This document shows, in pieces, positions 50 to 51,659 of a DNA stretch of 64,000 nucleotides. The notes under the pieces are model-generated. The model ran no database searches. It saw nothing but the letters and a program-made list of their open reading frames with translations, and was not told the origin of the DNA. Position 1 is the first letter of the stretch; each line of letters opens with the position of its first letter. A program made the translations under genes and the position numbers. Source of the DNA: Isurus oxyrinchus (lineage: Eukaryota); the NCBI GenBank assembly GCA_026770705.1, contig JANJGN010000007.1, forward strand, positions 108,996,001 through 109,060,000, in the 5' to 3' direction.

Positions 50-151
50 GGAGCAGCCGCTGAGACTGTGTGCTATGCTGCATGGAAATTCAGCAGAGCT
101 GGGAAAACTACAGGACATAAACGTGAAGAGGAGAGAAGCATGTGCGTTCAG
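50..151 (+). pseudogene. Penultimate (cytoplasmic) exon of an upstream paralogue of the VJ-C1 receptor; ITIM degenerate
   Basis: tctttgcag|GGA acceptor and CAG|gtagct donor. Translates GAAAETVCYAAWKFSRAGKTTGHKREEERSMCVQ, which aligns with exon 6 at 48438 (GAESDFVEYAALDLMKTPRRKREK). The following intron is also alignable. Confidence 0.8.
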
Positions 152-359
152 GTAGCTCTGAGCAACAGATGCAGAATCATAGATGATCAGGGTAACATCA
201 ACATTCATGAGATAAAGGAAGGCATTTTCTTTTGTTGGCTTTGATCGAGTGATGCATCGACGTTTATTTATTGCGTTCTTCGGATGGCCGTTTTGAGCAG
301 CAGAGCACAAAAATTGCAAAATGACAAATTAATAATATATCCAAATATTGGCTTCACAG

Positions 360-515
360 ATCCAACAAGGGGCAGTCGATCACAAGTTCCAGCATTGACT
401 CGTTCAGTAAAAGCAGGATTTACAACAATAAGGGAACAAGTACAGCGTATGCTAAACTGAAAATTGGATTGGAAAGATAAGTAACAAGCGACTTACGCAG
501 AAGCAGGAAAGAAAT
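360..515 (+). pseudogene. Last exon of the upstream paralogue, frameshifted with early stop
   Basis: ttcacag|ATCCAACAA matches ttacag|ACCCAACAA at 48727. The spliced frame gives IQQGAVDHKFQH* (TGA 396-398). TSTAYAKLKI (cf. RSTEYAELRI) and ATYAEA (cf. AVYTEA) lie in the two other frames. Confidence 0.8.
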
Positions 516-1237
516 CAGCAACAGGCATTTAGATGCAGGAGACAATTCCCTCATGTGTATGTATCGCATCCACCCCCCCACCCCCCCCCCCCCCAAGAAC
601 AATTTCAGGAGTATGTGTACGATGTGACAATCACCCTTCCGAGAGCTAACGCATTACATGATATATCAGATATCGTACTTATTACACGCTGGTCAATTAT
701 TCCATTAATTCTCTTTTAGCTGCTGCTCAGAAGAAAGTGGCCTTCTTGACTTACTTTATTTTTAGATCTGCATTGTTCAACCCTTTCGATTACAAGTGAC
801 ACGATAAGAGCATTACTCCATTCAATTATCATCATGCGTAAACTGGATAAAAATACATTATGTTCCATCACATATTATTAGAACGATTCCATACCACCGA
901 CCCACCCTGCATACACCCCCGCCCCCACCACTACCCCACCCCCCCCCCCGACCCCCTGCGCCCCATTATTTTTCGAGCGTTAAATTTGTTGAAATTTATA
1001 TATTGCGTTAAAGCCTTGTGAATTGTAGGCCAGTGGACGCTCGGCATGTGGCACGGGTGACGCTCGAGTGTATGTTCCCAGCATTAACCTAACGCAAGTA
1101 ACTTGAAGTTGCCCCCAAAACATGTATCTACCAACGCGGTCACGTGAAATCACATAATCTTAAAGCACAGAAGGAGGTGATGCGAGACGTTGTGCAATAC
1201 ATTTTTAATAATGTATCCAATTAGTTGCATCAATATA

Positions 1238-1422
1238 TTAGCAAAATGCTACGGATGCTGGGAATCTGAAATAAAAACAGAATAAAAGTAGAAATGTTCA
1301 GCAGTTCCGGCAACATGGGAGGAGAGAGAAAAAGAACCAGGGGACATTTAATCAGAATTGCCCATAGGATGTTGCTAGAGCTATTGAGTATTTCCAACAT
1401 TGTCTGTTCTTTTTATTTCTGT
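1238..1422. mobile_element. Degenerate palindromic Penelope-derived non-autonomous element
   Basis: ggatgctgggaatctgaaataaaaacaga...cagcag..ggcaacat on the left with an inverted counterpart gatgttgctaga..tgagtatttccaacatt on the right; same family as 47161-47372. Confidence 0.65.
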
Positions 1423-1817
1423 TAGTCTCATGCTCGGACTCTTTCCATATATCCCTGCGATCTTCTCTTTTTCAAGTGTATGTCCAATTCCATTTTGTTC
1501 ATTCCCGCGAGTATTGCTTCTAAGAATACATTTCCTATGCTGACACGGTATTTGTTATACATATATATAATTGATATTTGCTGCATGCACTTTAAACTGT
1601 GTGCGCTTTCTTCAAGAATGCTACAGCGGAAGTTAAGCAAGGTTTACAGTTTTGGAATCCTGCTGATTTGAATTAATAAAGTCACGGTTCTACAAGAACA
1701 TTTATCCCGAATAACAGGGGCCCCGCAAAATACAAATAGATATCCAACTGCTTGTTGATTATTATGTTTAGGTTTGATTCGAATTCGATTTTCTCATCTA
1801 ATGGCAATGTGTTGATT

Positions 1818-3052
1818 CAAAATGTCTTGTGCACAGTCACGTGCAGTGGATCCTTCAAGGGGAAAGCAAACACCTCCACGCTTCATAACTGTCATTTTTA
1901 CTTCAATGTCGTCACACTTGTTATTGTATTCGATTCCCTTTTGTGAAACCGATCTGGTGTACATTGTTTTGATAACTAATTAACGCTGTTGCATCTCTGT
2001 GCAGGAAATAGAAAATTCAACGTGTGGGTGTTCCATTAGTTCTCATAAAGTGCAAGCGATTAGCTGGGTTTTGCAATCATCTGTCTTTAGCTACAAGAAT
2101 GTGCTGCTAAATATTAACCAGCGCGGCTTGTTTATCCGAGCTAACTAAAGATGTCGTTCAGTCGCTCTGCTCAAAGCACAATGATCTCCAGCCCTAAATT
2201 TAACTCTGTTGATTGTAGCATGCTGCAAATGTACCTTCTCCAGAATAGCAACAGCAATTTCACATCAGTTGATTCGGTGTAAGTATAACAACAGCTACTG
2301 TTGTAATTATAACTAAAGCCACAGATATTGTATTGCACATTTGTCATTGTAACATTCCTAACTGCACTAATGGTAATCTGCAAGATCTTCGCCTTAAGGT
2401 ATTTGTCCCTTTTTTATTCATTCACGTTTTCCATGTTGCTTTGTGTTTTCATAAATGCAGCTCTGTTTTATTTTATTATTCATTTGCACACCATTTTCAG
2501 TAGAGTTAAGTTGGTTAGTTCCCTGCCGGGCAGTAGAACTTTCTTATGTCCTACGATGATGTAACATTGATCGCATCGATTCATAAATTAAGTTCTCGAT
2601 ATTGTCCAAAACGTCAAGAAAATTCAGGAATTGAAGCACACTTTAAATAATTAATCGATAATTTTATCATCTTGTGAAGAAAATGGCTTATTCAATTTTT
2701 TTCCTAACATCGTTTATTTCATAACTGAACTGGGATTTCGAGATGATGTAGGAGCAGGGATTGCAAAGAATTTCGAACGAATCGTCTTATCCTCCTGTTC
2801 CAGTCACATCGAGGCATAAAAATAAAACCTAATTAACGATGTCACCGGAGCAGCGCTTTCATATTAAAATCCCGTTCTCAGCCAGCACGCGATGGGCAGA
2901 TCTGTATCACAAAAGGGAATGGAAGACGATAAAAAGTGGGGTGATAATTCCTGTTACCATCTTGAAAGAATATATAATAGTGGTGAAGAGTCGAAGTGTT
3001 TGCTTTCCCCTTGAAGAATGCACTATATATGATTATGCACAAGAGCGTTTTG
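1818..3052. repeat. Imperfect inverted repeat, arms ~1818-1957 and ~2897-3052
   Basis: tcttgtgca..ttcaaggggaaagcaaacac..ttcccttttgtga..gatctg occurs on + at 1826-1956 and on - at 2897-3045; the ORF track shows FKGKANTSTLH on both strands. Confidence 0.8.
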
Positions 3053-3461
3053 CGGTTGTACACAAGGAAGAAAGTATCCGTATCACATACACATTTCAAA
3101 GGCATCGTTTTTGGGAATGCTTATTGACAATCTGTCAAGCTTCGGATGTCCTTGGGGAGTTATCGTGACTCCCACTGTTTTTGTATATTTGTAATTTGTT
3201 GCTGTGCTAATGTACTGTTGCAAATAAATGGTTTCAGTCTGTATTACAATTAACATATAATCAAAGACAATTTCTGAAGATAAGCTGTTTTCTTAATTGT
3301 GTGATTTCTATGTAAAGCAATAATATCTCACGTTATTTTATCACCATCTCTTGCCCAGTCAAAAAGGTGTTTACATCGCCAATTCTTGCAGTTTATAGTT
3401 GCATGACTTGAATCAGGAAAAAAATTGAGCTTTCAGTTACTGAATATGGGACAAAATCCCT

Positions 3462-8500: not shown

Positions 8501-10590
8501 ATCTCAGACGGGAGAAGATGCCGTGTTTTACCGACTCATCGGAAGGCTATGGGCTACGATAATGCTTCACTCCCTAGTTCTTCTCTGAAGGATCAGCCTT
8601 GATTGATCAAGTGCCTGGAGTTGGGCTTACAACACGCGCTTACAGGAGGGAAAGTGTGCTACCACTAGGCCACGGCCGACCTTATACGTGCCCGGACCGA
8701 GGAGAGGGTTGCGGAAACCTTCGGGTATTTCCTGTTCTTGAAGCTTTCCTCTCAGTACATTGATCACTCATCCTATAATCTGCACAAATTCCCTCAAGAA
8801 ACGGATAGGTAATATGTGAATGTGTATAGTTCATCATTCGCCGCTGTTCTTATTTTCCCCGTATTAGTGTCTCTCATGCGCCAAAACAACCCATGAAATT
8901 AAAAATGTTCCCTTTGTTTGCATCAGCAATTGCGATGTTTCACCCACATTGCCAGCTGTATAAGTAATGCCAATACAATTATTCATGCCTGCAAAGTGAT
9001 TTACAGTCATGATTGGAATTAATTGAGAGAGTTTCTTTACGTCAATCATTCAATGCCCCTGCTGTTTATTGCTCGGGTTACAAGACGGGCGGCCGTTATG
9101 GTTTGGACTTCCTCTGTTCAGTGTGGGTTGTGAGGCTTTGACAATGCATTCTGAAGGTTGCGTCGGCTCGGCAACAGTGGGCATAGAAAGTCCGCAAAAA
9201 TTCATCTCCCATAAGCCAGCGGAATGCTTCAGCCATGCGCCTCCATTCACTTCGAAATAACGAAGTGGTACTGGAAAGTCAGGTTTCGATATTTGCTGCA
9301 AGGAACGATGTCAACTGTGAACATAATTGGCAAATGAACAAGTTGCAGTATAAGGGGAATAGTTACATAGCGATTAGTAATTGTCAGACTGAAAGAGTGT
9401 TTGATGAATATTCCAGACCCACCTCCAAACGGGAATTGAATAAATATTAAAGGTAAAATCAGTAGGCTTTTGGGGAGAAGCAGGGATGTGAGATTATTCT
9501 CCAGCTATTCCGAAGGGCAGGCAAAGCGCGATATTCGATTCTATGTTTCAATATTCTACAGATTCTTTTTTTCTTTATCATCCACATCGACCTGCATAGC
9601 AGTCTGTTTACTATCATAGCCGCCCTGAAATCGCATCTCCTTTCGGAATGCTTTGCTAAAGGTGAACAAATTCTAAATTCCAGAATAGACCTGATATCAA
9701 CTTTCTCCTTCGACTTTTCAGCAGATCCCCGAAATCAAGGAAAGACAGTTCCCCACGCATCTGAAATTAACCTGTCCGGGTTTTTTTTTGACTGCTCCCT
9801 TTGAAATCACTTCACTTAATTCCGGTAGACTGACTGTCACTTAAAACAAAAATAATGGAAGGGTTGGCACTGGAATACCACGAAACAGCTAATCGGGGAT
9901 AGGATGCATGGAATTTCCAGTTCCTTTGAAGAGGCATAGTCTGTACAGACAGTAATTTCTGTCTGGGTTTTCGCGTGAGCTTCCAGTTTCCAGCCATGCG
10001 AATTTCATAAGATCACAAGACTATTAAAATATTTGCAAGAGTAGGCCATTCTGCCCCTAAAGACACCATTCAATAAGCTCATGACTGATCTGATTGTGGC
10101 CTGAACTCCACTTTCCTGCTTTCCCCTCACAACACTTGAGTCCCTTGTCGATCAAAAGTCTTTCAAACTCAGCGTTGAATATATTCAGTGACCCAGCCAC
10201 CACTGCTCCCTGGGAGGAGAATTCCACGTACCAACGGTCCGCTGAGAAAATAAATTCCTCTCAATCCCCACCTTAAATGGGAGACTCGTTATTTATATGT
10301 TGATTCTCATAGGTCTACATTCTCCCACAAGGCGCATCGACCCTGACAAGCCTCCGCACCCCGCACCCCCGCCACCCCCCGCCACCTCCGCCAGAATCTT
10401 ATGTTTCAATAAGATCGCCTCGCATTCTTTTAAACACCAATGTGCATGGGACTAATCTGCTCAATCTCATTTTAAGGCAATTCCTTCATCCAAAGAATCA
10501 ACTTAGTGAACTTCTTCCAAAGGAAGTATATATCTGCTTAAGTAAGCAGAACAAAACTGTACACAATGCACTAGATACTGTCTCACCAAT

Positions 10591-14670: not shown

Positions 14671-14989
14671 ACCAAGAATGTTGTCACGATAAAACAATAA
14701 TCTACCCGTAACCCGACTGTTATATTCTACAAGAGGAAAAATGCTGTTCAGGTCTTGCTGCAGTCAGGCCCGGTGTGTTTCAATAACTGAGAATTTGCAA
14801 ATGGTACTAAAGGCCGTGTAATCATGAGTGAAAATTCATACTTATGACGTTATGACGGCGGGAATGTGATTGACTAAGCAGTTGAAGATGGCTGCCCGTT
14901 GGGCTGAACCCGTAGGAGCTCGTGAGGTGACGTCCTGAGTCTGACATGATTGGGCTCCAACAAGCATTTCCTTTGCGCCAGTTATGATT

Positions 14990-16980
14990 CCAAACAGCGG
15001 AGGCTTTCCGCCTGAATCCTAATTACTTCAATTTTCCAAGGGCTTCTTGATGACACACTTGGACAATTGCTACTTTGGCGTCAGGGACAGCCGCCCTCAC
15101 TGAGCCTTTGGAATTCAGCACTTTTGCCCATGTTTTCACCTAGGTTGTATTGAGGACTGGGGCCTCGTGACCCTGGCGGAACCCAAACTGAGCATCAATG
15201 AGCAGCCGATTGCTTATTAAGTGTTCCTTAATAGCCCATCTGCAGGATGCATTGCAGTAACTTACCACTGCTCGCTGGCTATCACCTACCAAACCAACAC
15301 CCTCTACTACCTAGAAGGACAAGGCCTTGAGAACACCACCACCTTCTAGTTTCCCAGCAAGCCACACATCATGCTGACTTGGAACTATATCGCCCTTCCT
15401 TCATCGTCGCTGGGTCAAAATCCTTGAACCTCTTCCCAAGCAGTACATGAACTGCAGCGCTTCAGGAAAGCGGCTCATCACCAGGGCAATAAGAGATGGG
15501 AAATAAATGCTGGACCAGCCAGGGAAACTCACACCCCATGGACGAAAATAAATACCGCTCCACTACACCTTCCAGCACTTCTTCAATGATTGTGGGGTGG
15601 TTATTTACACATTCTAATTGATCCGTTTTCTGTGGACAGTGCATATCTGGGTAATGTTTCACCTTGTACGGTAAACGCCAGTGCTCTGACTTTACTAGGG
15701 CAGTTTGGCTGCTAATGTAGCTGGATGTCGAGCGAAGGCTTTCATCACTACAGCTGAGAAGTTGGCAGAGCTATGTTGCATCCAAAGCATTCAGTGGTTT
15801 CTCGCTGTGGCGTGGAGCCAATCGAATTAGCTGAAGATTGGCATCTGTAGTGTTTGGGATCTGAGGAAGAAGCCGACTTGAATCATCCCCTCGGTACTTC
15901 AGGCAGGAGATAACTGCGCATGCTTAGTAATTTGTCACGGAATTGGGGATTGATGGGGATGTTTGTGCAGCCTCCTTTTGCCGTTAGTTGTTTAATTGTC
16001 CATCAACATTCACGAAAGTATTTCGCAAGACTGCAGAGTTTTGATCTGATCCATTGGTCCCGAGATAACTTTGCTCGTTCGGCAACGAATAGTTTCCACT
16101 GTTTAAATGCATGTAGTCTTATGTTGTAGCTTCGCCAAGTTAGCATATCGCGTTCAGATACGTTTGGTGTTGCTCCTGGCCTGCACTCAGAAATTCCTCC
16201 TTGCACCAGAGTAGCTCCAATGGCTTAATGGTAAAGGTAGTCAGTGATATGCCGGACCATGATGTTGCCGGTTGTGATGAATAAAAGTCTGCTGCCTCTG
16301 ACGGCCTACAGCGCCTTTTGGATACTCAGCCCTGATGCACTGAGTCTGTTCCGAATCCAACCTATTTACCACGATTGGTAGTTCCACACAACGTAATGGA
16401 GGATGCCCTCAGTTTAAAGGTCGACATCTCTATAAGCACAGTACAGTGGTAATTTCTACCGACTGTGTAATAGCCAGGTGCATCTGCGACTGGTAGATTG
16501 GTGTGGACGAGGTCAAGTAGGTTTTCCTTCTTGCTAGCTCCCTCATCACATTCTGCAGACTCAGACTAGCAGACTTGGCCTTCAGTCATTAGACAGTTAT
16601 GTGAAATGGGCAGTTATCGAGCAATTCTCGGTGATGGACATTGAAATCTCCTATCAAGAGCACACTCTGTACCCTGTAGCTTCAGTGCTCATTCCAGATA
16701 GTGTTCAAGAGTGGAAAGCTCTGATTCATCAGTTGAGGGGCGACGGTAGGTTGTAATCAGAAGGAGCTTTCCTTAGCCACGTTTGACCAGGTGTCATTGC
16801 GCTTCATGTGGCAAGAAAATAAAACAGTGCTGAGGACTTCTAGGATCATTCTCTGTTGACCATAAACTACAATGACGTCAAATCTGGTGGGTCTGCCCTG
16901 CTGTTGGGACAGAGCTTGTCCAAGGATATTACTGGAGGAAGCTGGGACATTGCGTGTAAGTATGATTCAATGAGGATCAT
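14990..16980 (-). mobile_element. Degenerate non-LTR retrotransposon (CR1-group RT, second family), with a + strand 3' fragment at ~15238-15550
   Basis: Clearly similar to 61480-63200 (e.g. gaggtcaagtag, tgatggacattgaa, atcagttgaggg); its 3' tail gggcaataa..gatggg..ataaatgctgg is shared with the SINE at 40725. Confidence 0.65.
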
Positions 16981-17089
16981 TACGTCAAGCTCTTTCTGCA
17001 CTCCCAGTTTTTTTGCATAAGTCCGTAGATGTTATTGAGAAGGACTTTACATGTTAGACTGGGCAGGGCAAGCCCCTTTTTCATATTAA

Positions 17090-17256
17090 CATAAAAGCAA
17101 AATATTGCAGATGCTGGACATCTGAAACAAAAACAGAAAGTGCTGTAAAAACTCGCCCTCTGAAGAAGGGCATACGGATTCGAAAAGTTAGGTCTGCTTC
17201 TCTTTTCACAGACGCTGTTAGACTTGCTGAGTTTTTGCAGCATTTTCTGTTTTTGT
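17090..17256. mobile_element. Palindromic Penelope-derived non-autonomous element
   Basis: aaaaacagaaagtgctgtaaaaactc ... gagtttttgcagcattttctgttttt inverted arms around ctgaagaaggg..ttcgaaa. Confidence 0.75.
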
Positions 17257-17809
17257 CCCCTTTTTAAGATTATCTGTCTTTTCTGCAGCTGTTTGATGCA
17301 ACTAAGTTGCTTGCTAGCCGTTTCAGAGAGCAGTTACGAGTCAATCACATTGTTGTGTGGTTGAAGCCACTTGCAGACCACACCGTGTAAGGATGGCGGA
17401 TTTATTTCCCTAAAATAATAGTGGGGCGGGGGTGGGGTGGGGGGGGCAAACGATTTATTAGATGGAATCTCAATTCTTGATGACTTGCCAGTGACATCCA
17501 TCGGTATGCAACCTGTGAGGATGAAATATTTCCATTTGGATATCTCCCCCAACACATACACTGGCACACATCAACACACACAAATGCATGCACGCTTCTG
17601 CTTGCCAATTGACATGGTAGGGCAGCCGAAACCGAGGAATTTTCCACATAAGAGATAATCACTTTGAGGAAATAGGACAAGAGAGTGGAGCAAGAATAAA
17701 ATGAACGAATGGGGCTTATTCTCCTGTTTCCTCAATGAATGTAAAGAATGTGGGTGTCTAAATTTTTTGAAAATGACAGGATAAATGATGAGTAAGTGAA
17801 AAAATGTCA

Positions 17810-23066: not shown

Positions 23067-26000
23067 CTTTTAACACAATCTGAGAGAGATAATTTAATTT
23101 TTTTAAAACGTAAATTAGTAACAATTTATGGTAATGGGGCATAGCAATCATAAATATTTAATGCACTTTTAATAGCAATTAGAGAGATCATTTTGGTAGT
23201 TGAGGGATGCTATTGCAGGAACAAAACCTCTCCTGAGCAATTTTATTCAGAAAGTACCAGCGAAATCTTCCATTCCTGAGGTGTTGTTCTAACCAACACT
23301 TAATTAAGCATGAAAATCTCTCCCTCTGTCTCCTCGGGTGAATCCTGAAATCATCCTATTCCATATGGAGTTCTTCTGCTCCACTGATCAACACTCAAAA
23401 GAGCGCAACAGAGTCCAGACGATCTGCAGAAACATCTCGTTTTAATCATTAATAATCTGAGAATTTCGTGTTTTGTGTTTCATTAAAAAAAAGCGCTCGT
23501 GTTGTCTATTTTCTGTTATCAGTGAATATTGAGAAGACAGATTCTGCCAACATGTGCAGAATGCATCAAAACATGAGGGTTCTCTACTAACACTGCCTAA
23601 AATATGCTGTTAATCGTACAGATTGGAATTTATGCATTAACATTGATTGTACAACACCTTAGTTTCCGTGGTGAAGAATTCAAGTCGCGTTAATTTCAGC
23701 AAAGTAACTTTCTTCAGCGCGGGAACCAAGTGCTGGAATGTTACCACGTCATAAAAGGCTTATATTGGCAAGTTACGGGGTGTAGATTTTTTAAGAATCC
23801 ATACATCGAGGAAACTAAATCGGAGTTCATACTTGACGTAATTTCAGGCACTTGGTGAATTGAGTTTTGCGGCCTCAAGCAAGTTATCAGTGGGGAAAAG
23901 TGCACGAAATATGGTATGGACATGGGAACAGGAGTTGGCCATCTGTCCCCTCGTACCTGGCCCACCATCAATTAGATCATGGCTGCCATGTACCTCAAAG
24001 CAATTTGTCCAGTTTATCCCCATAATCCTTGATAGCCATTCCGAATGAAAATTGATCCATCCCAAAACTGAGAACTCGAATTGGCAATTTGGTGAGAAGG
24101 AACCTATCTCAACCTATTTATTAATTTCAGTCCAAGATTTAAGCATATGTACTATTTCAGTATCTTGCTTCAATAATAATGTTATCTGCATTCGGGAAAC
24201 ACTCATTGGATGAAACACTTCGAAATCGCATGATACTAATGAAGCAAATGACATTGACCTTGGGCCGTAGCGCATAACGCGTGATTGTAAATTGGGAGCT
24301 GATGCACTCCGTGTTCAATGGAAACGAAATTCCGAAGGTGCATAAATGGAATTTGGTATCACCAGTTTTAGCTCATCGATATTAAGGTCAAATTGCATAT
24401 ATCACACAGCTCAAAATTCGTCACGCCCGCTGCAATGACGGTTAGTACACAATACGTTGGCAACAATTAGCACAGCTAACAGATTTGTGACAATGTTCTA
24501 TTTTGCTATAATGCACTTGAGAATCGGTAGCACTAGCACGTAGAACATCAAATGAACTACTTCATTAATTCTTTAACACCAGCTCTCTTTCCGATATCGA
24601 TAAATATTTCGCTGTCGCAGTTCCAGCAAGAAAGATAGGGTATATGGAAACAATTACACCTCTGGCAACTCTCTGGAGTATTGGAGATTGATCTGATTTA
24701 TTTTAAACTACTTCAAAAGATTATCAGAAAAATAAACAAAATTGCTGATACAATGTGTATATTTTTCAAAACAAATATTAAAACATCATTTAAAGGGAAT
24801 CAAGAAAACTAACCGAATTAATAGCGCAATCAGAAAAATGGAAGAAACGAAGTTCAAGTTACGTGACGAATTTTGTTGCATTCGCCTTTTTCGCGAAGCA
24901 TGAAGCTGCAACGTAAACAAACCCAGCTCTGTAAAGAATGCGCTACAAGGTATGCGCAGAAGCAATGAACTTACCCTATTCTCAGTGCCGGACATCAAAC
25001 CTCGCAAATATTGCTCAAAATCATCAATCCCCTAGGATGCAGAAGCCACGGATTTAGACATAGGTAATGCATCCAATTGTACAATGTTTAGTGATGCATT
25101 TCCTTTATTAAGCCAAATTATACCAATAGGATTGACAATAGCATCTGTGATCGGAACTAGCTCGGTTTCGAATGAAAGCATAGGGAACGATATGTTTTTT
25201 TTTGCCGAAATCAACCCTGTTTCTGTTCGTTACTGGGCCCTGTTTCATAAACCGGTCCTAAAGTTGATTGGTGTTGAACGATAATTAATTTGGTGAGTAC
25301 AGCTGGAGGAGTGCTTCTTTCCGGTAATAGTGTGAAAGGGACATCCTAAACACAGAGTAAAGAATTGGAATGTGCTGTAGTTCTGGCGAGATCCTAAGAG
25401 CATTGGAAAAGACACTCCAGTATGAGAGGTGAGGGTCAGGCTAATATTGTGGGCAGGAAGCCGTGCAGACTCACTGTTTCATACACGTGCAGCTCTCTTG
25501 CGCCAAAACACGCAATCTTTAAGTTCCTGTAACATAACTGCGTTCAGATTGCAATTCTCCATAGGCACAAACGCTGAGGAAACTCCGAGATGTGAGAGCT
25601 GATTTCTTGTTTGAGTGTGTGCGTTTGTGTGTGTGTGGTGATAAAACTCTGGTAATTGCCCGAGTCGTCGTTTTGTTCAGTCGTTTCCTACAGCACACTT
25701 TGACCAACGTCATAAAATTATCCGTGCATTGAATGCTGATGCACATTATGCCAACCTATCGAGTTCGCTATGTTAATGTGATTAAGTACGGGTGCAACAA
25801 TGCAGTAACTAACATTCTACTGTAAATGAGAGGAGCTTGTTTGTCAGATCCATGATTGTGCAAATATAACAAAATGCTGGTCTTCGTCCATGATGGTACC
25901 GTACCGCATATACTGGCTTGCCTGCGTCATCCTTTTTAACCCACTTGTATTATCTCCCATCGGCGTTGAAGCTTACAAATGAGAAAATGCATTGAGAGGA

Positions 26001-37870: not shown

Positions 37871-40724
37871 TGCGGAGTGGAACATGGTAACAGCAGGTGA
37901 AAACAAACTGCTTATCAGCTGGGGCTTCCTGAAGTACTATTTGCCATGGTTAATAGAGGACAGTAACGGTATAGAAAAACAAAACGTAAAAGAGTATTGA
38001 CTATTTCAGGGAAATGGAGCCATTTCAGTTTTAGTTAACGCTGGAGAGACTGTGTGGCTTTGCTGGCGATATCAGAAGAACAAGTGTCCAATTTAATGCT
38101 TGTACATTCAGAATGGAACCAGGTTAATCACTCAATATTCAAGCAACCCTGGAATCTCGGGACTTTCTGAATTTCAGAGTTTAGAAATATCCGGTGAGAT
38201 CTAGCTGTATTTTTAGGGTCTCCGGGTCTGAAAACATTCAAGGAGAACCAATTATTCTGGGAACATTCGGGAGTTCCCAACAGCACTGATGCAAGTTATG
38301 CCCTGTTTTGACCACAGTGAGATTGATGTTGGATTTCTCTCCAGGTCTGACAGAAATGGCGGCAGTTCTATTGTGAAGTAGAATTGGAAATGTGGTTGAA
38401 AGTTTTGTGAGAACGAAAAGTGAATCACAGGATACAACAATGTTGTCAGGGATTCCCAGGAGAGGAATCCAACGAGGAGAGGAAAATATTTAAAAGCACT
38501 GGGTTAACATATGAAGTGCACAAGCTAGTCTGCAAAGGCAGTTAGTTATAATTAGGTCTTTATGTTGGAACAGGTTATGGCAACCCCGAAAGCAAACTGC
38601 ACATTGTTACTGGGCACGCAGTGGGAAAGGCAAAGAAATGATGAAATAACTTGTTAGAAAGTTAAGCCTACTTAATTGGAATGTGATAAACCCGAAAAGG
38701 AGGGCTGTTTTCTGCTGGGAGGCAGGATAATGGCCATTATCAAAGGTTGCAAATGCTATACTTTACTGGAATGGAAAAATATTTTCTGATGTAGCCACAG
38801 CTGCCTTGATAATAGGTCGTAACCAAAAACATATGATGAAAGTAGGACGCGGAGCTGAAACTTAAACAATTCAAAGCCCTGTGTAAGTGTTTAATTTATA
38901 ATTAGATAATGAGGTTTTGTTTTCATGCTGTTATAATTGATTTGATAGTCTTTCGTCAGATTAACAATACAATAAAGGGATGGTTGAGTGAATGTGTGTC
39001 TATGGTTCTGCAGCTACTTAGCCTCTGTGTATGCCTATGACTGTCATGTACTCTGAAGAAGTAAACATCGTTGTTTAACGATTTAAAAAATCGTTTACGT
39101 AGCTACTTTCAGCCACAATAACAGGGGGTGTTACCCAGGAACATCACCGTGTAGTACCGAATGCTCCTGAAACCTGGCAACAATGTGGTAGCAAGGTCTC
39201 GCAGCTGTGTCGTAAGGTGTGTGTGCCCCAAAGAATTAGGACTTAAACTGCTCTGCTTCTCTTTCAAACCATCAGGCCCCAATTTACGATTATATTATCT
39301 GGTTTTCATATTACTATAACAAAATCAAATGTAATTTTGTATTCTTAGGTGCCCTCATTTTCCCATTGTCAATGATTATCTGTCTAAACCATCTTAGTAG
39401 AACGATTCTGTTTCTTACAATTAGTAGGCATCACGGAGCAGCTGCGCACAATTGTACAGTATCCATTTTTCAGCCGATGCGAAAAGCATAGATGTGAAAA
39501 TGCTGTCATTTAGTTTACATGGTAGCTTACAAGCCATGGAATTTCACTGCAAGTTCGGAAGCCTTTCAGCCGTTTGTTTATTTTCCACAGGTTTTGCCAG
39601 TCTGTCGCCGCAGTTCGGAGAGACAAGGGGAACACACTTTGAATTTAATAGCATTTTTCAATAAGCAATAAGATGTTTGTGGACGCAACAGCCATGAGTT
39701 TGCTAATCAAGTATGTTTGTATTAAAGTGTTGCCTAAACACTTATCAACAGAGAATAATATCCTATAATAAATACATTTTGAGAAGTCAACCTCCTATTT
39801 ATTTCCAAGCCATTTGGAGACAGGCAAAGCAATTCTCAATCAATCAGGACTGAATCGACGTACCCTATACCCTTCAATTCATTTTGTTACACAGGCAACA
39901 TGTAGAAAAAGAATTAAAAAGCGGGCGTAATGACAACGCAAAAAATGCAAGCTATAAAACTCTGCAAACTACAGAAAATCGGAATGCACAGATGTGGTTG
40001 TTCCTCCAACTGCCCTGAGGGAAACAACTATTCAATTGCTTTTGTGACAGGTTCAGATATTGATTGAAAAACTTTGCTGAAGTTTTTGAAAGTCACAAAG
40101 GACAATTGACTGGGTAAATAAAACGAATGACAAGATTATGATCACAACATTTATTTTATCATGCCAATGGATATAGATTTGCCATGAACATTTCCCTAAC
40201 AATATTCGAACCTAAGATTTTATCACTATTTTGTCGTTGCTTCTTTGTAGATGACTTGTTACTCGTCTTTGAATCTTCACCTTTAGCTCCGAAAATTCCA
40301 TGCTCCCTTTGTTACTTTTACATATACCGGCATTTTGGCTTTATTCTTGGCCAGCAACTCTCTTTCTTTGTGATGCCACGGTTTGGCCATAGTTTCTGCT
40401 TTTCATTACTGGTTTGTGCATTGCTGCTCAAAGCATCCATTCGCTTGAGATATAACACATGATCCAAATCAGTGCAATTTAAAATATCCTGGCGCCCCTT
40501 AAATATTAGTACTGTACATCTGCCTGATGGGTCCCTGAGCCTGCTTTTCGGTTATATGTAAGCGTAAACATTTCCTCACCTCATCAGGATTAGCTCCTGT
40601 AATTTGTTGCAGTACGAGCGAATTCATTTTTTAACATTATGTTCAGTAGTTAGGCGATTGCTAACATCCGTTTACATCCTGCCAGCCAAGCATTGATCAC
40701 AATGACTGGAATAAAGTAGTAATG

Positions 40725-41085
40725 AGGTGGTGGCACAATCGTAATAGCACTAGACGCATAATCGAGGGACCCCCAATCTAATGACCTGGGAAAATGTGTC
40801 CAAATCCCACCACGGCAGCTATTGGAATGTGAATTCAATTATAGACCTGGACTATAAAGATAGTCACATTGATAATGACCATGGAACGATCATCGATTAT
40901 CTGGCTCACTAATTACATTTAGGGAAGGAACTCTGCCGCCCTTAACCAATTTGGCCTACATATGGTTCCAGGCCCAGACCCACGGTAATGTGGCTCTTAT
41001 CTACGCTCTGAAAGTGCAATTAGTGCTGGGCAACAAATTCAGGCCTTGCCAGCGATACCCGCATTCCATGAGCCAATAAGGAAAA
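40725..41085 (+). mobile_element. tRNA-derived SINE sharing its 3' tail with the second LINE family
   Basis: ggtggcaca..gtaat head, caaatcccaccacggcag B-box region, tttagggaaggaa.tctgcc, and tail gggcaacaaat..ggccttgccagcga; another copy at ~46268-46490. Confidence 0.7.
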
Positions 41086-43606: not shown

Positions 43607-43661
43607 ATGACAACGTGTTTGGCATTTCTGTGCCTGATCTTCCGAGGGAGCTTTGACACAG
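43607..43661 (+). CDS. Exon 1, signal peptide MTTCLAFLCLIFRGSFDT
   Basis: agaATGa start, hydrophobic core, phase-1 donor G|gtaccg. Confidence 0.85.
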
Positions 43662-46600
43662 GTACCGGTTTATTCATTTGCTCAGTTACTCTAAACTGCT
43701 TCGGAAGGTTTTTTCATATTCATTTAACAAACCGCATTTCCTCTGTCTTGATTATGTTTTCCCCTTCCACCTTCGTGTATTAGCTAATACTGCTAACCTA
43801 TGTTTGACTATATTTCTGACAGCTGAGTGCCACACTTCGATCCGTGTGTCTCAAGCACCACATAAAGCGAATGTATCCAGAGGCGAGAATGTCACATTCT
43901 ACTGCATATTCCCCATTCTTCAAGACCAAGCCAGGGCACGGGTATTATGGTGGAAACATGGTGAGAATGAATACCTGGACAGAAACGCGGAGAAGAGAAG
44001 GAGGTTTGGTATGGAAAGCAAAGTGAGCGGTTTCTTTCAGTTATTGGACGCGAAATTACAAGACTCAGGAATTTATTACTGCTCCGTGATCCGTCGGGGA
44101 GTAGTTCGAGGAAATGGAACAGGATCACATCTAATTGTGCACGGTAAGTTTGGAACACAGGAAAGCAAAACCGGCATAAATATATCAAACACAACAATCG
44201 GGAATGTGCATCTTTTCTGTCAGTAAAAACGTAGTTATTAATACATTTCGCGATGTTATTTGTATATTCGTGTTCTCCATATGAAATGCTAAATATACAA
44301 ACAATGCCACGCGCAGAGTAGCGAATACCTAGCAATATAATCAAATATAGCATAACTATAAAGGCAATTTGTGCACCAAATTTATATAAGCTGCAACTCG
44401 GAATAAATTCTTAACATATAACTGACTGAAAATCTTATACATGAATGCGCCTTTCCCAACATTTACATGCCTATTAGCCTGGCTTTGTTAGTCTACCTGC
44501 CGCCATGAAGATTAATGTCCCTGAAACTAAATCTAACGTCATGATAGCGTTCGGATTTCAATGTCAATCTGCAGCTAACCCTTGACCAACAAATTCATTA
44601 AAGAGCTGGGGTTTGAAACATATAAGGTTGTCACCTCTCCTCTCAAACTTTTCAATAAATAAAACAATACAGAGATGCTGTGTTGCTGAAACCTCCTGAG
44701 GTTCAACTGAATATAATTCATTTAATCAATGGTCTTGATATGGATCTGAGATATTCGGGCATCGTTAAAGTTCTCCTTTAATCATCAAAAATACGCTTAC
44801 TTTTCGACATTGTCTTTCACTGCACATTAAACAGTGAAGATTCAGCGAGCCGACTTGCCCACCAAGGTTTAATTCCGCAGACGATGTAAACCAAACATTG
44901 GTTAGCCAATTATGCCGTTGGCGGGCCAAGGAATTCAAAGTCTTGACAGCCTGCTAAAGTCGACAGAATGGCGGTCTTTATGAGAGTTCTATATGATTTA
45001 GGCACAGGTGATGTGTGTAACAGTAGAAGGACAGGAAGCTGGAATTGTAATTTACCCGACTGCAAGAAAATAGGCCCAAAGTAAATCATAACTATATTTA
45101 ATTTATCCAAGTAGCGTACAGTAGCTCAACCTTGTTCATCTGTGTTCACAGCGACCCCAGCCCCACTAAGAATTGTCCCCAGGACATCTGAATGGAATTC
45201 ATCTACTGTTTTGACTCTGGTCTGTTATACGGCTGCCTTTTATCCAGCAAATGTCACCCTCACGTGGTATGAAAATGGTATCGAGACTACATTCGGAATA
45301 AACACCAGTAAAGTGCAGAACTCTGAGGGACTGTATGAAGTTTCTAGCTCTTTGGCTGAGACGCAGCCTGCCCGGAGCGACGCGAATTATACTTGCTTGG
45401 TCTTCCATAGCACCCTCAATACTCCAGCTGTTGTCACGTACAAGGTTTTTAAATCTAACCAAGGTAGGAGACCAACATTTCAAGAAGGAGAACCAGCTAC
45501 TGTTGAATTCATAGAGTCATACGTCATACGCTATGTGCATATTGAGAATCATGAAACTGTTCTACGGAAATCTGATGGGAAATATCAATGACATCTTTAA
45601 AATCTTGTCTTTACAGTGAACTGAATGTGATGTTTTGCAAAACCTGGTTGTACCTCCAGGCACACAAATATACTTGGTCAAACCGAAGTTATTTCCAAAT
45701 TCTTTTATTTCTTACGTAACAATATTAAATATCACCATTTATTTTTTAGTCTCATATTTCCTCACCTAAACGTTATGAATATTTTCATTTTCTATTTTCC
45801 CATGTTAAAAGTAGTTTCTTCTGACCATTGCCGACTCATCTTGCAGGAAGACCATCATCAGGAGCTGCAGACATGTTATTTGCGCACGAAAGCCTTGCGA
45901 AATAATTTCCGATATTGCCTCATGTTCGGCTACTTCCAGTGGAAAGTTTTGAACTAACCATCTGGCCAACTTCTCCTCCTCACCGCCCACAACGGGTTTA
46001 ACTGGGATGGGTCTCATATGGTTGCAGCATATTCGGTTCAATGCAGCATGTTGTTGACGACTCCCTGCATAGTGAGACGAATCAATGATACATTTTTTCA
46101 TTTACTTAAGGGTTGTAGGCGTCGATGCCTGGTCCACCATTTCTTGCTCATTCCTAATTGACCTTGAACGGAGTGGCTTTCAGGACATTTCAGAGGGCAG
46201 TTAAGAGTCAACCACGTCGTTGCTGATGCCCGTTTATATCCAATGGCAGCAATATTTTACGAGCAGCTGGTGACGTAGTGGTCATGTCTCTGGACTAGTA
46301 ATGCAGAGGCCTAGGATAATGCTGCTCGAAAAATACATACTTCAAAGCTAGTTTTAGTGATGTGCCATGACACTATAATCAATGGCCATAAAAAAAAACA
46401 TTTGGTTCACTAAAGGCATTCAGGGAAGGAAATCTGTCATCCTTTCCCGGTCTGGCTCCAGACCCACTGCAATGCGTTGAGATCCTTAAAAGGGTAGGGA
46501 TCTTCACAGATTAATCAGAAATGCGTCATCTTTTCGAGGAGAAAGCAAGTGCAGATATTTTAGCTAAAAATAACATTTTGTATTTAAATATTCTTGCTCG

Positions 46601-48891
46601 TTTTGAATACTGAGGTGTTAGTGAGAACAGCACTATAGTTTAAACAATACACTATCCTAGAACTTATTTTTAACTGAACATTCGTCAAAACATAATATTG
46701 CAATTAACCTTGCAGGTATTGTCCAGAAGTCACTCTACTATTGGATTCCAGTGTATGTGGTGCTTGGATTCGCGCTCCTGTTGTTTATGAGCGTCATTGG
46801 AGGACGGTACCGAATGCAGAAGAATGAAGGTAAGATCTGCTGTGAACCCTTGATTTTTTGCATAAAACCTCAGGAGGAATGACAGTTACCGGTAACACAG
46901 GAATAAAAGGGAAGCCGATAAGGAGTTAAAGTTGAAAACACTCTTAATGTTTTCAGGGAGCATCGATTGTTGAAAATATGCCTTGTAATATATAGAATTC
47001 TAATAAAAATTTAAACTATTATCTAGATGTTTATAAAGATATTTTTCCTTTGCAAAATGCTAAACGAAAGGCACCTTGGCACGCAATCACTTTCCAAACC
47101 ATTACGTGTTGGAAGCGCAATTGGCATGATGTGCGGCTTCCGCCGGTAATGGTTGTAGAGAACAAAAACAGAATTACCTGGAAAAACTCAGCAGGTCTGG
47201 CAGCATCGGCGGAGAAGAAAACAGTTGACGTTTCGAGTCCTCATGACCCTTCGACAGAACTTGTAGACAGAACTCTTTTCTTCTCCGCCGATGCTGCCAG
47301 ACCTGCTGAGTTTTTCCAGGTAATTCTGTTTTTGTTTTGGATTTCCAGCATCCGCAGTTTTCTTTGTTTTTATAATGGTTGTACAGGTTGATACATGAGA
47401 AACAGGAGCAGGATCAGGTCATACAACTCCCCGAGCCTGCTCCACCATCATGGCTGATGTTCGGCACTCTTCAGCTGCATTTCGATGTCCTTTGATTCCT
47501 GCAGCATCCGAAATATTAACTTAGTTTGCGCGAAATATTCAAAACATAATCTACTGCTGCTTGGAGTTCAAAACCTTTCCGCACAGGTCAAAGCTGAAAA
47601 CGCATGTTGGGCTTTTTATAACTATAGACATATCTTTGTAATGTTTGAGATGAAAAATAAGTTTAAAAATACTGAAAATGCTGCGGGAGCGAGTAGGGTG
47701 GTGGTGGGTGGGGGCGGGGGGTGAGGTGGGTGCGGTTGGGGAGGGGGTCTCAGCAGGTCTGGCAACATCTTTGGAGAGATAAATGCGGTTAGTGTTTCGA
47801 GTCCCTATGCCTCTTCATCAGTGATTATTTCGATATTAAATTTTATTTCTTCCCAGGTAAACAAGAACATTTAACAGGCAGAGACCGTCGCGAGGAGCTG
47901 GTGCGTTGATTCATCGACAGTTTGTTGAATTATCAAAGAAGATTGATATAATGGAAAGTTAATATCACCATCAGATCAGACCAGTTTAAATACATTTATT
48001 AAAAGTATTTGCCCGATCTGAGAGAGATAGTCAAGTCAGATATAGAAATTTATTTGCCACCTAGTCCGTTGCTGGCAAACATTGGTAAATGCTTAGAAAA
48101 TAAAACCACCTATTTCGTTGAAAATGTACCTGGTTAACAACTATCCATAAATGTATCTATCCTTTTGGAATCGAAAATGAATTTTACGTATTGAGACTGC
48201 TGTCCATTTAAACATTCCTGTAAGGCTTCTATCGAGTAAACATTGGCAGGTTTAAATAGTTGGTATAGTAGCCACAGGCTCTTAATATTCGAACTTATGT
48301 AACGATCAATGCATTATCGTTTGCGCACTTCAGCTCGAGCCCAGGTTAACCTGTTCAATGCTTGAGCAGCGCCACGCAAACTGGTGAACATAATGAACCA
48401 GCTAGGTAACTAGAATTTTTACTTATGGTCCATTCAGGGAGCAGAGTCCGACTTTGTGGAATATGCGGCATTAGACTTGATGAAAACTCCAAGGCGCAAA
48501 CGTGAAAAGGTGAGTATGTTTAGGTAGGGCCGAGTAATATATCAGATAAACAAATATCACCAATATAACATCAACGGTCGTGTGATAGGCAGGGAAAATG
48601 TTTCTGTTGATTTTGACCGTACGTTGTCTCTAAGGTTATTATGTGTCCTTCTGATGAATGTTTTGAACAGGTTCCAGAGAACTTGCAAAACGGCAAATAA
48701 ACAATATTTTCAAACTGACCTTACAGACCCAACAATGCATAGCCGGTGCCGATCTGCTGTACGCGAGTGTAACACAAACAGGCCCAGGCAGAGGTAAAAC
48801 TAACGAAAGAAGTACGGAGTATGCAGAGCTGCGGATAAAAACACAAGGTGGAGTAAGAGAGGCTGTCTATACAGAAGCAAAAATCAACTAG
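43607..48891 (+). CDS. Ig-superfamily type I receptor: leader-V(J)-C1-TM-ITIM tail (NKp30/NCR3-like V, SIRP-like tail), ~360 aa, 7 exons: join(43607-43661,43823-44143,45152-45463,46716-46829,47857-47900,48438-48509,48727-48891)
   Basis: All introns are GT-AG with phases 1,1,1,1,0,0 and give one open frame of 1083 nt; canonical V and C1 motifs, a hydrophobic TM and tyrosine motifs are present. Confidence 0.9.
43823..44143 (+). CDS. Exon 2, V-set Ig domain with in-exon J-like G strand
   Basis: ttctgacag| ... VSQAP..VSRGENVTFYC..VLWWK..QLLDAKLQDSGIYYC..RGNGTGSHLIVH G|gtaagt; 321 nt. Confidence 0.95.
45152..45463 (+). CDS. Exon 3, C1-set Ig domain
   Basis: ttcacag| TLVCYTAAFYPANVTLTWYENG..NSEGLYEVSSSL..YTCLVFHSTL ..G|gtagga; 312 nt. 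Confidence 0.95.
46716..46829 (+). CDS. Exon 4, transmembrane
   Basis: cttgcag| GIVQKSLYYWIPVYVVLGFALLLFMSVIGGRYRMQKNE G|gtaaga; no charged residue in the helix. Confidence 0.9.
47161..47372. mobile_element. Young palindromic Penelope-derived element in intron 4, with TSD
   Basis: ~60-bp perfect inverted arms (47162-47221 / 47277-47336); TSD taatggttgta(g/c)ag at 47147-47160 and 47373-47386. Confidence 0.9.
47857..47900 (+). CDS. Exon 5, cytoplasmic GKQEHLTGRDRREEL
   Basis: tttcttcccag| ... CTG|gtgcgt; bridges phase 1 to phase 0. Confidence 0.8.
48438..48509 (+). CDS. Exon 6, cytoplasmic, ITIM VEYAAL
   Basis: cattcag| GAESDFVEYAALDLMKTPRRKREK |gtgagt. Confidence 0.88.
48727..48891 (+). CDS. 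Exon 7, cytoplasmic, with LLYASV, TEYAEL, AVYTEA and stop
   Basis: cttacag| TQQCIAGADLLYASVTQTGPGRGKTNERSTEYAELRIKTQGGVREAVYTEAKIN*; the acceptor is conserved in the paralogue at 360. Confidence 0.82.
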   Translation, partial: TQQCIAGADLLYASVTQTGPGRGKTNERSTEYAELRIKTQGGVREAVYTEAKIN

Positions 48892-49184
48892 CAATTGAAT
48901 TTAAACGCTGGAGTCGTTTTGCAGTCTGTTCTGATCGCTTCGCTCTGCTGTACCGTTTCCAGATGTATATGTATTGTGGGATAACATGTCTATCAGAAAA
49001 TTCAGTCCATAGTAGTCACTTGCTATTCAATTATTTGAAGTTTCATTTTCGCTGGTTTGATGAAAAACATAACTTTCGTGGCAAATTTTCAGGATGAATC
49101 TGTATCTTTAAAAATAATGCCACATCTTTTCCTTCGACCACAATGGTACGCTAATGGCACCTAATTATCTGTATACCAGAATTT

Positions 49185-49190
49185 AATAAA
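49185..49190 (+). terminator. Polyadenylation signal AATAAA
   Basis: First AATAAA ~295 nt after the stop codon. Confidence 0.6.
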
Positions 49191-51659
49191 ATCTATTATG
49201 TAGAATGTCTTACAAATCAGTAATTAGTGCTCATTTTGTACAGTAACACTGCAAAACCTGTATGTTGATTTATTTGTCCGCTTACTGCATTCTGGCCTCC
49301 AGTATATCTGAGGTCCCTGATGCCAAACGGGTGAAGCTGAAGTCCATGTACTTGTCCGACAACCTACTGAAAGTAGTTTCAAGTTGTTGCGGGATCTACA
49401 AATATATATCTCCATATGTGAACACGTAGAATCATGGAATCCTACAGCTGAGAAGGAAACTGTAGGGCCCATTTTACCAGTGCTAACCATTTGAAAAGGC
49501 GATCCAATTATTCCCACACTTGGTTCTTTCCCTAGATCTAAGCAATTATCTCCTTTTCAAATATACATCGAATACCATTATGAAATGTAATCCATGTATT
49601 CTTCTTCCAAGCGTCATTATTGGATAACGCTAGGCTTCATTTTCTTGTTCACTTCAATGCAAGCGCCATTTGCTGCTCTACCTTTCTGTTTTGCCTTTGC
49701 TGTTTCTTCAAATATTTCTACAGAGGAAGTCAAGCAGATCTGCTTTTTTGAAATCCGTGGAGATATAACTTGTTTAGCTCAGCTTATTACAAGAACTTTC
49801 ACCCCGAAAGAGAGGGATCCCTCAAAATGTAAATAAATGCGCAACGGTTAAATTGTCATGATCTTTCAGCTAACCTAATTTTTGATTTTCTTCACTTAAA
49901 AACAATACGTTGAATAGTGGCATATCTATTTACGGCATGGAAAAGATCATTGTGTTGGCGGCTTATCAGTTCTGATTAAATGTAGACCATTAGCTCAGGT
50001 TTGTAACCGTTTAGTTTTAGCTACACTTATGTGTTACTAAATATTGACATGGCCAAATTGCTTATTCGAGTTTGGCAGAGGAAATGGTTCACTCGCCCTT
50101 CTCGAAATATTAACAGGTCATTTAGTTCTAAATTTTGCAACATATCGTGGGCGTATCCAGTGTTAAATAGCAGCAATTGTTTCGCATCGCATGTTTGAAT
50201 GTAATTAAAGCAACACTTCAGCGTTCAAAAGGATTTTCTATTTTACATCTGTCAGTGTAAATTTCCAAGCCACACTGTTGTAGCAAGTTGAAATTATTCG
50301 TCTCATGGCGGTTGTGCCACTATTACTCCACCAACTTTCATATATTACTGAAAACATTTTCCTAATTACATTGTCTGTTCCTTTCTTATTGATGCATACA
50401 CAAGCTTTAGTAAATTTAAGTTTAGATCTCCCAGACGTAATGCAATTTCATGTCCTAAAGTACTGTAGCGTTGATCTCATTGATTCAAAAATTGCAGCTT
50501 CTGCATTTTGTCTAAAATCGGCCAATAATACCCATTTCATGCAAATTCTCCATTATTCTAATCATTTTGGAAGAAGTTCGCTCGTTAAGGTTGTTCCTGT
50601 CCTCGTGTTGTATATCACAGAAATGGAGTTTGGAGACGATGAAGAAACAGGTTTGCAAAATTATATTCTGTAGCGTTGTTTTGCCGCACCGTTCCAATCA
50701 CATCCGGACATTGAGAAGAGCCAATACATGCCGATTTGTAAACTCGCAGACAAGGGACTTTCATTATGAATTCTTGCTGCCGGACATAATCCAACTGGCA
50801 GATTCATATCATAAAAAGTGGAGAGATATTTCCCGCTAAAACATTGAGGGAATACATAAGCTCTGTTGCGAAGTTTGCATTCCCTTTAGGGCAGACGCTA
50901 ATGATTATTGTACAGGTGGTTCAAAAGGTTGTGTGCAAACACCTGCACTAGCATACCGATTAGCCATGGCAAATAAAAGGCAGCGGTGGATATTTATTGA
51001 TATAGCATCCAACTTTGAATGCCAGTGAGACCATACCGTGGCTCTCTGCCTATAGGCAGATTTGCAGATTAGTCTTTAGCTAGTAATAAACAAATATGTG
51101 CAATGGAAGTGAATAAAAACGCAATTTTGAATTCCAAATTTATCAGCAGCATCGCAGACTCTAATGATTTACTCCAGAAAAATCCCGGAAGGTTGAAATG
51201 GCCGCTGCATCCCAACATTGGGTGTGAACAATCAAACCTGTCTATGATTCCTTCCTGCCAACAGCAACACTGCTAACACTCAAATTAGGGATTCGCAGGT
51301 GAATAATGAGTGAGTTTGGGCTCCAACGTGCAGCCAGCACCCTCGCAACGATATTACATTGTGAGTAAACACTTTGACGACAGCAGGAGACACAATAGAG
51401 GGTTTGTTTGGAATTAAGCAACCTGAATATTTAAATTGCTTTGTAAAATGTTTCACTTTTGTTGGCAATGAGGGTCAATATTCAAATTTTCCTGTTGTTA
51501 ACATTTCCGCTCTCTTTCCTCCGTGAAGACAGCGACTTACTGTTTGAGCCCCAACAGGTCCTTCAATCCTTAATGCTACCGCCTATTTTCTTCTCTTCAC
51601 CATTTAGTTGACAATCGCAACAGCACACATAACACAAACAGGGAAACAATTAAATCTGA

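Follow-up and report, generated by a model that had tools for sequence, protein, structure and literature searches.

A tail-clipped, possibly signalling-dead paralogue of a V(J)-C1 inhibitory-type receptor gene in Isurus oxyrinchus

Results

Two copies of a receptor gene

The 64,000-nucleotide stretch of the Isurus oxyrinchus genome analysed here, referred to as the window (GenBank assembly GCA_026770705.1, contig JANJGN010000007.1, positions 108,996,001 to 109,060,000, forward strand), contains a receptor gene and, upstream of it, the tail exons of a second copy, with three relics of the same family between the two (Table 1). The downstream gene is, as judged from its sequence, a complete cartilaginous-fish V(J)-C1-TM-ITIM receptor gene. 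From the V exon through the last exon it forms a single joined open frame, its transmembrane (TM) segment is uncharged, and it has both the full leader-V-C1-TM plan and a canonical ITIM. The domain labels of the window exons rest on precomputed Pfam matches of relatives. At 48510-48529 the donor of its exon A has apparently moved 14 nt forward, with the old donor still visible and the use of either one predicted.

Table 1. Receptor-family features in the window
Feature	Position	Strand	Remarks
Upstream copy, exon A (penultimate cytoplasmic exon)	50..151	+	34 open codons; phase 0-0; tail profile iE 1.4e-6
Upstream copy, exon A splice sites	acceptor AG 48-49, donor GT 152-153	+	both retained
Upstream copy, alternative donor CAT/GTGCGT	139..147	+	exon end 141, phase 2; putative use
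Upstream copy, A-B intron	152..359	+	141/196 aligned bases identical to 48524-48726
Upstream copy, exon B (last), open part	360..398	+	12 codons, then TGA 396-398
Upstream copy, exon B remainder, decayed	399..523	+	frameshift-aware alignment to P0007 and P0008
Upstream copy, 3' flank	524..3199	+	colinear with 48914-51073, about 65% at aligned sites
Family C1 exon relic	9707..9994	+	stops, frameshifts; nhmmer E 1.7e-4; tblastn with P0001 E 8e-4
Family V exon relic	24439..24816	-	stops; other subfamily, closest to P0038/P0040; tblastn E 5.5e-8
Inverted tail-exon relic	40215..40605	-	nhmmer E 1.2e-6; acceptor AG lost
Downstream gene, leader exon	43607..43661	+	best match to family leader, score 40 (next best 19)
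Downstream gene, V exon with J-like GNGTGSHLIV strand	43823..44143	+	64-69% identical to five shark proteins
Downstream gene, C1 exon	45152..45463	+	
Downstream gene, TM exon	46716..46829	+	hydrophobic stretch without Arg/Lys
Downstream gene, first cytoplasmic exon	47857..47900	+	
Downstream gene, exon A, VEYAAL	48438..48509	+	earlier donor used, hence without TVYAQ-type motif
Downstream gene, last exon, LLYASV, TEYAEL, AVYTEA	48727..48891	+	AATAAA at 49185-49190

A reading made from the sequence alone (the sequence-only reading) had taken the upstream exons for those of a tandem paralogue and had staked this on a significant match between 1-600 and 48390-48950. The match is significant by every measure that found it. 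Local alignment of 1-900 with 48301-49300 scores 379.5, far above the scores of 200 shuffles (80.4 +/- 10.8, maximum 116.5); sensitive blastn matches 4-541 to 48392-48913 (61.4% over 549 columns, E 3e-33); and nhmmer also recovers the match between the two tails (E 2.8e-39), which default blastn with its 11-base words did not find. Beyond the tail exons the colinear blocks run on to 3199 in the one copy and 51073 in the other. By these alignments, 50-523 holds the final two exons of a paralogue of the complete receptor gene at 43607-48891. The exons are also homologous to, and in register with, the tails of chondrichthyan V(J)-C1-TM receptors, which places the copy in that family. Its leader, V, C1 and TM exons would lie before base 1, outside the window; if the spacing of the downstream gene holds, the first cytoplasmic exon is predicted at about 0.55 kb upstream, TM at 1.7 kb, C1 at 3.3 kb and V at 4.6 kb. 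A search with the P0008 tail returned only four H. perlo proteins among 155 candidates, and no orthologue of the upstream gene was found.

Lesions of the upstream copy

Exon A aligns to its relatives without a gap, with 17 of its 34 residues identical to both P0008 and P0029, and its register is exact with P0004 too. Exon B yields 24 identities to the 57-residue last exon of P0008 once frameshifts are allowed. The main lesion of exon B is a 13-nt deletion at about 390, which takes out an LTYATL-type ITIM; a net -1 shift near 413-424, a stop at 478-480 and a -2 shift near 487 follow. This lesion map comes from P0007 and P0008, the two best-scoring of the seven relatives' tails tried, the remaining five giving weaker and partly different frameshift paths through the exon. 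Under the identical frameshift-aware alignment, the last exon of the downstream gene has in-frame gaps only. With the ancestral donor, the predicted product of the upstream copy ends 12 codons into exon B. All three of its visible splice dinucleotides are intact.

The motifs named in the sequence-only reading are where it placed them: VCYAAW at 68-85, SMCVQ at 137-151 and the TGA stop at 396-398. The last exon, entered in phase 0 from the ancestral donor, is read in frame 3, so that TAYAKL (442-459, frame 1) and ATYAEA (488-505, frame 2) are both out of frame. The proposal that SMCVQ replaces a Tyr motif is also borne out. In relatives EEERTVYAQ stands in exact register with EEERSMCVQ. This alignment identifies the donor at 151/152 as the ancestral one and confirms a genuine change from Tyr to Cys. 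We also considered whether SMCVQ is mere intron sequence, as it aligns to the start of an intron in the downstream gene. This was dropped in view of the TVYAQ in register in relatives; the alignment to the intron start arises because the downstream gene shifted its donor. The second Tyr, of the TVYAQ type, is also absent from the intact downstream gene and from intact relatives, among them P0032 and the ray proteins, so its loss in the upstream copy tells little.

The wider claim that all of the Tyr motifs are disabled stands only in part. In I. oxyrinchus the tail translated from the ancestral donor contains VCYAAW and no canonical ITIM. However, the first Tyr is retained, and in a sister species, described below, the exon A ITIM is whole (VCYAAL). 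The reported GATAAA at 846-851 does lie opposite the AATAAA of the downstream gene but carries no weight, since AATAAA is present further on at 1270, 1281 and 1675. For the same reason, loss of the polyadenylation signal was dropped as evidence.

A second individual and a sister species

The sequence-only reading had allowed that the indels might be errors of assembly. Twenty sequencing runs of two organisms contain at least half of the sampled words, and 4 of the 24 listed runs were compared with the window. Run X5, from another individual of the same species, has no differences and no gaps across 1-469. Runs X7 and X13 are from what we call the sister species, a label inferred from about 98% identity in this region. 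X7 provides gap-free contigs over 23-82, 85-307 and 309-564, and X13 a single contig across 1-1000 with no listed gap within the exons; of the 8 gap letters in the X13 contig just 1 is placed (972), and the exon contigs of X7 have none. Neither run shows a change at 274-469; both species therefore have the deletion, the stop and the frames in common. The fourth run, X23, of the sister species and putatively RNA, has no coverage of the exons, which is evidence neither for nor against expression. The lesions of the upstream copy are real mutations rather than assembly errors.

Between the two species, 16 listed sites differ in 50-900, a count that leaves out 704, which differs within I. oxyrinchus, and 930, 932 and 972, which are in a repeat. 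Position 84 is T in the sister species, which makes the exon A motif a canonical ITIM, VCYAAL, in place of the VCYAAW of I. oxyrinchus. As L is the residue in the closest relatives, the W is derived in I. oxyrinchus. The exon A donor has C at +5 in I. oxyrinchus, where both the sister species and the downstream copy have G. In the TAYAKL frame, a further stop at 469-471 is confined to the sister species.

Runs X5 (records 18 and 21) and X7 (record 24) also contain extra contigs about 85-90% like the upstream copy, over 1-431 of the window, one of which runs on into a version of the TEYA motif that reads TEHAKL. Their source may be either a further paralogue or the copy of another species present in that run.

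Relics and clustering

The inverted tail-exon relic lies 3 kb ahead of the leader of the intact gene and has MEFSEL where a motif of the TEYAEL type stood. A 2-nt gap in this relic coincides with the -2 of the upstream copy, and since the gap is shared it may be older than the upstream copy. Five family-derived stretches thus lie inside 49 kb, and clustering is seen elsewhere: 10 family proteins of H. francisci and 8 of H. perlo are found, each set on equal-sized contigs. Birth-and-death turnover in this cluster, which had been proposed on the upstream paralogue, is supported by that paralogue together with the three further relics between the copies. The spacing of about 48 kb attached to that proposal is another matter: it is merely the offset of the two copies, and a regular 48-kb repeat unit is unsupported, with the C1, V and inverted tail relics interrupting the interval.

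The V(J)-C1-TM family

Of 7078 candidates in a profile search, 49 proved to be relatives (48 of these named), from 12 species of shark, ray and chimaera (for example XP_067853517.1, XP_067906051.1, XP_078066559.1 and XP_038662970.1). Their automatic names are of the kind 'SHPS-1/SIRP-like', 'tapasin-related-like' and 'CD276 homolog'. The TM was surveyed in 118 proteins with the C1 end motif and could be scored in 85. A basic residue is present at one aligned position in 16 of the 85, and in all 16 it is Arg. The Arg-bearing TM is of two kinds: one derives from the inhibitory TM exon, the other is distinct and ends in IIVD. Tails shorter than 60 residues accompany the TM Arg in 14 of 16 proteins, versus 20 of the 69 without it (Fisher p 2e-5, an overstatement given that isoforms, partial models and close relatives are among the rows; P0001, whose Arg is shifted, was counted as lacking it).

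ITIM-bearing and short TM-Arg forms occur as pairs: P0012/P0052/P0054 versus P0053 in S. canicula, P0013 versus P0055 in M. asterias, P0030 versus P0019 in C. milii and P0036 versus P0050 in H. perlo. In four such pairs the ectodomains share 200/204, 198/204, 199/204 and 199/204 residues, the C. milii pair being possibly two models of a single locus. P0053 and P0055 each form part of a 97-98% identical pairing with an Arg-bearing short partner (P0053/P0012 98%, P0055/P0013 97.5% ectodomain identity), with TM Gly versus Arg. In a tree of 41 V-C1 rows, the ITIM and short forms of C. milii, and likewise those of H. perlo, group as close sisters, and P0003, an Arg-bearing short form, is nearest to the downstream gene.

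These near-identical ectodomains, with an ITIM tail in some members and a short tail plus TM Arg in others, agree with the paired-receptor anatomy that the sequence-only reading had brought up. Paired receptors are described in the available text of PMC3533184 as activating and inhibitory members with closely similar ectodomains, a definition that the V(J)-C1-TM family fits on its sequences, at the level of the family only. No publication on the family, or on this pattern in it, was found in a search that had key subscription papers and supplements outside it. The available portions of PMC12227049, PMC11599192, PMC10751288, PMC3964593, PMC6795676 and PMC3533184 do not describe the family.

Discussion

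Comparison with known receptors

By ectodomain profile, the nearest sequence match in the PDB is UrIg2 (E 1.1e-20), followed by the IgA1 heavy chain and SIRP-alpha (both E 3.1e-17). UrIg2 is again top for one single protein. Mammalian SIRP shares with the family a V domain that has a J-like strand and precedes C1, a multi-Tyr inhibitory tail and short-tailed partners. The SIRP ectodomain plan is V-C1-C1, whereas the downstream gene encodes its ectodomain with a single V and a single C1 exon, and the short chondrichthyan partners have Arg near the outer TM end where SIRP-beta has Lys in its TM. SIRP is counted among the VJ genes in the accessible text of PMC11599192. Orthology to SIRP is not shown by the sequence scores, in which SIRP-alpha does no better than the IgA heavy chain and falls below UrIg2, and the window yielded no flanking marker gene by which synteny with SIRP could be judged. 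The V(J)-C1-TM family putatively works like a SIRP- or LILR-type inhibitory receptor.

LILRA/LILRB, DCIR/DCAR and KIR2DL/KIR2DS have the same near-identical ectodomains with an ITIM tail or a short tail plus basic TM residue, and according to the part of PMC3533184 available they also share clustered genes, pseudogenes and ITIM relics behind a stop. Their ectodomain is unrelated, and the TM of the upstream copy lies beyond the window. The non-rearranging VJ genes, shark UrIg/UrIg2, NKp30 and PRARP, share the unsplit VJ exon. The solved UrIg2 chain is antibody-like, V-C1-C2-C3 (PMC12227049, as far as its text is available), in contrast to the V-C1-TM plan of the tandemly expanded chondrichthyan family with its ITIM tails. 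Annotated chondrichthyan receptors are the closest comparison: they have the leader-V-C1-TM-tail plan and the exon A register, and P0004, P0053 and P0055 have clipped last exons. The upstream copy differs from P0053 and P0055 in truncation point and subfamily, and in I. oxyrinchus also in the W at Y+3.

A clipped receptor or a dead gene

Is the upstream copy a receptor gene that has lost most of its signalling tail but still makes a protein? Or has the whole gene died? The reading we prefer, at a probability just short of even, is that it is a tail-clipped inhibitory-type receptor, predicted to be signalling-dead in I. oxyrinchus. The 13-nt deletion takes out the main ITIM and brings in a stop 12 codons into the last exon. 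Stops in the last exon escape nonsense-mediated decay, an established rule, and because of this the truncation would have left a one-ITIM receptor. The rest of exon B would then have turned into 3' UTR and decayed subsequently. Later, the L-to-W change in the I. oxyrinchus lineage likely abolished the final phosphatase-docking motif. The predicted outcome is a receptor that is decoy-like or decaying, with a membrane protein with a clipped tail likely still produced. A long life with a clipped tail would have ended either in a non-signalling receptor, for which the chances seem close to balanced, or in recent death, which is somewhat less probable but has to be taken seriously.

The uneven state of the two exons is central to the weighing. 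Exon A has 34 codons without a gap or stop, whereas the distal 134 nt of exon B have three frameshifts and a stop. Could neutral decay have left this pattern? Decay was simulated in 5000 runs at the rate of the paralogous non-coding flank (0.45 substitutions and 0.040 gaps per site, both branches combined, from 1688 sites), with equal rates assumed on both branches, and a run counted as survival when exon A, the opening 30 nt of exon B and all three splice dinucleotides were still intact. Survival was 0.7%, 2.7%, 8.3% and 29% if the gene had been dead for the whole, for three quarters, for half and for a quarter of the period since duplication. A test free of such assumptions, that all lesions fall within the distal 134 of 266 nt, gives p 0.06-0.25, depending on the lesion count used.

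A pseudogene that makes no protein now, perhaps after a life with a clipped tail, and whether it died before the sister species split off or afterwards, has an appreciable probability, if one clearly below even. Long death is the version that the simulation counts against, as exon A and the splice sites outlast it in just 0.7-8% of runs. Every visible lesion is in the last exon or in the motifs, the last exon contains the sole stop of the ancestral frame, and none of the lesions in the visible exons would abolish the product. Annotated relatives also terminate at the same place, P0004, P0053 and P0055 ending 9 residues past the same exon junction with the exon A motifs alone retained, although their short tails come from automated gene prediction. 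Decay has gone much further in the three relics elsewhere in the window, where stops and a lost acceptor are seen. On the other side, dead relics make up 3 of the 4 other family-derived stretches in the window, which counts against a live gene, as does the comparison of the species. Exon A differs at 4 of 102 sites, versus 12 of 749 elsewhere in 50-900 (Fisher p 0.11), by a neutral-like three replacements to one silent change; the probability of at least three replacements is 0.006 at dN/dS 0.3 and 0.12 at 1.0. The divergence of exon A between the species shows no sign of constraint. Two of the changes in I. oxyrinchus strike functional sites, the L of the ITIM and the donor +5, as recent decay predicts, and the sister species has its extra stop. 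As to its live or dead state, a dead gene is nearly as likely as a short-tailed receptor.

The sequence-only reading had offered, besides a pseudogene, a signalling-dead or an activating partner, and of these options the activating partner is the least likely; we regard it as improbable. The TM exon that would bear its Arg lies beyond the window. Were translation to stop in the TM exon or in the first cytoplasmic exon, exons A and B would be untranslated relics, comparable to the relic ITIM behind a stop in KIR2DS2 (PMC3533184, in its available text). Arg-bearing members with short tails do exist in the family, as set out above, with ectodomains up to 98% identical to those of ITIM forms, and one of them is the nearest neighbour of the downstream gene in the tree. 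Yet such a partner would predict equal decay of both tail exons, when exon A is open and exon B is not, and the sister species retains a whole exon A ITIM. A stop two introns ahead of the end of the transcript would moreover be expected to trigger nonsense-mediated decay.

Very improbable is a rescue by splicing, in which the main transcript would use the donor at 141/142 and read exon B in the TAYAKL frame, so keeping an ITSM-like motif. In both species, splicing from this donor would leave the frame open as far as 478-480, TAYAKL included, and the donor has the intron hexamer of the one at 47901 in the downstream gene. It matches the consensus at 6 of 9 positions, however, versus 7 of 9 for the donor at 151, which is ancestral by register with the relatives. 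No relatives of the frame ahead of TAYAKL were seen, and one open frame of 40 codons can arise by chance.

The tail-clipped receptor can be extended to a larger and rather unlikely picture: a live cluster member in the middle of conversion, inhibitory with one ITIM in the sister species and a signalling-dead decoy in I. oxyrinchus, in an uncharacterised tandem cluster of paired VJ-C1 receptors of cartilaginous fishes, whose inhibitory members would be converted time and again through clipping of the last exon and gain of the TM Arg.

By itself, the upstream locus is an ordinary birth-and-death product of an immune-receptor cluster. Its larger interest is as an entry to a family with paired-receptor anatomy built on an antigen-receptor-like, unsplit VJ-C1 frame. 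If the family is undescribed, it would supply candidate regulators of NK or myeloid cells in the most ancient jawed vertebrates that possess adaptive immunity. How such receptors lose signalling could be tested simply through the single-base ITIM difference that separates the two sister species.

Other features

The P0055 model of M. asterias has two tandem copies of exon A, so that the membrane-proximal motifs are doubled, and its last exon is clipped. Within the window, 40658-40992 has a weak same-strand match (26.5 bits) to 46220-46476, in the C1-TM intron of the intact gene. A colinear match of 57-65% between 14930-17413 and 61386-63475 looks like a LINE-type retroelement by translation. 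It was not counted towards a 48-kb repeat, and its placement can be read either as a shared insertion or as a chance position.
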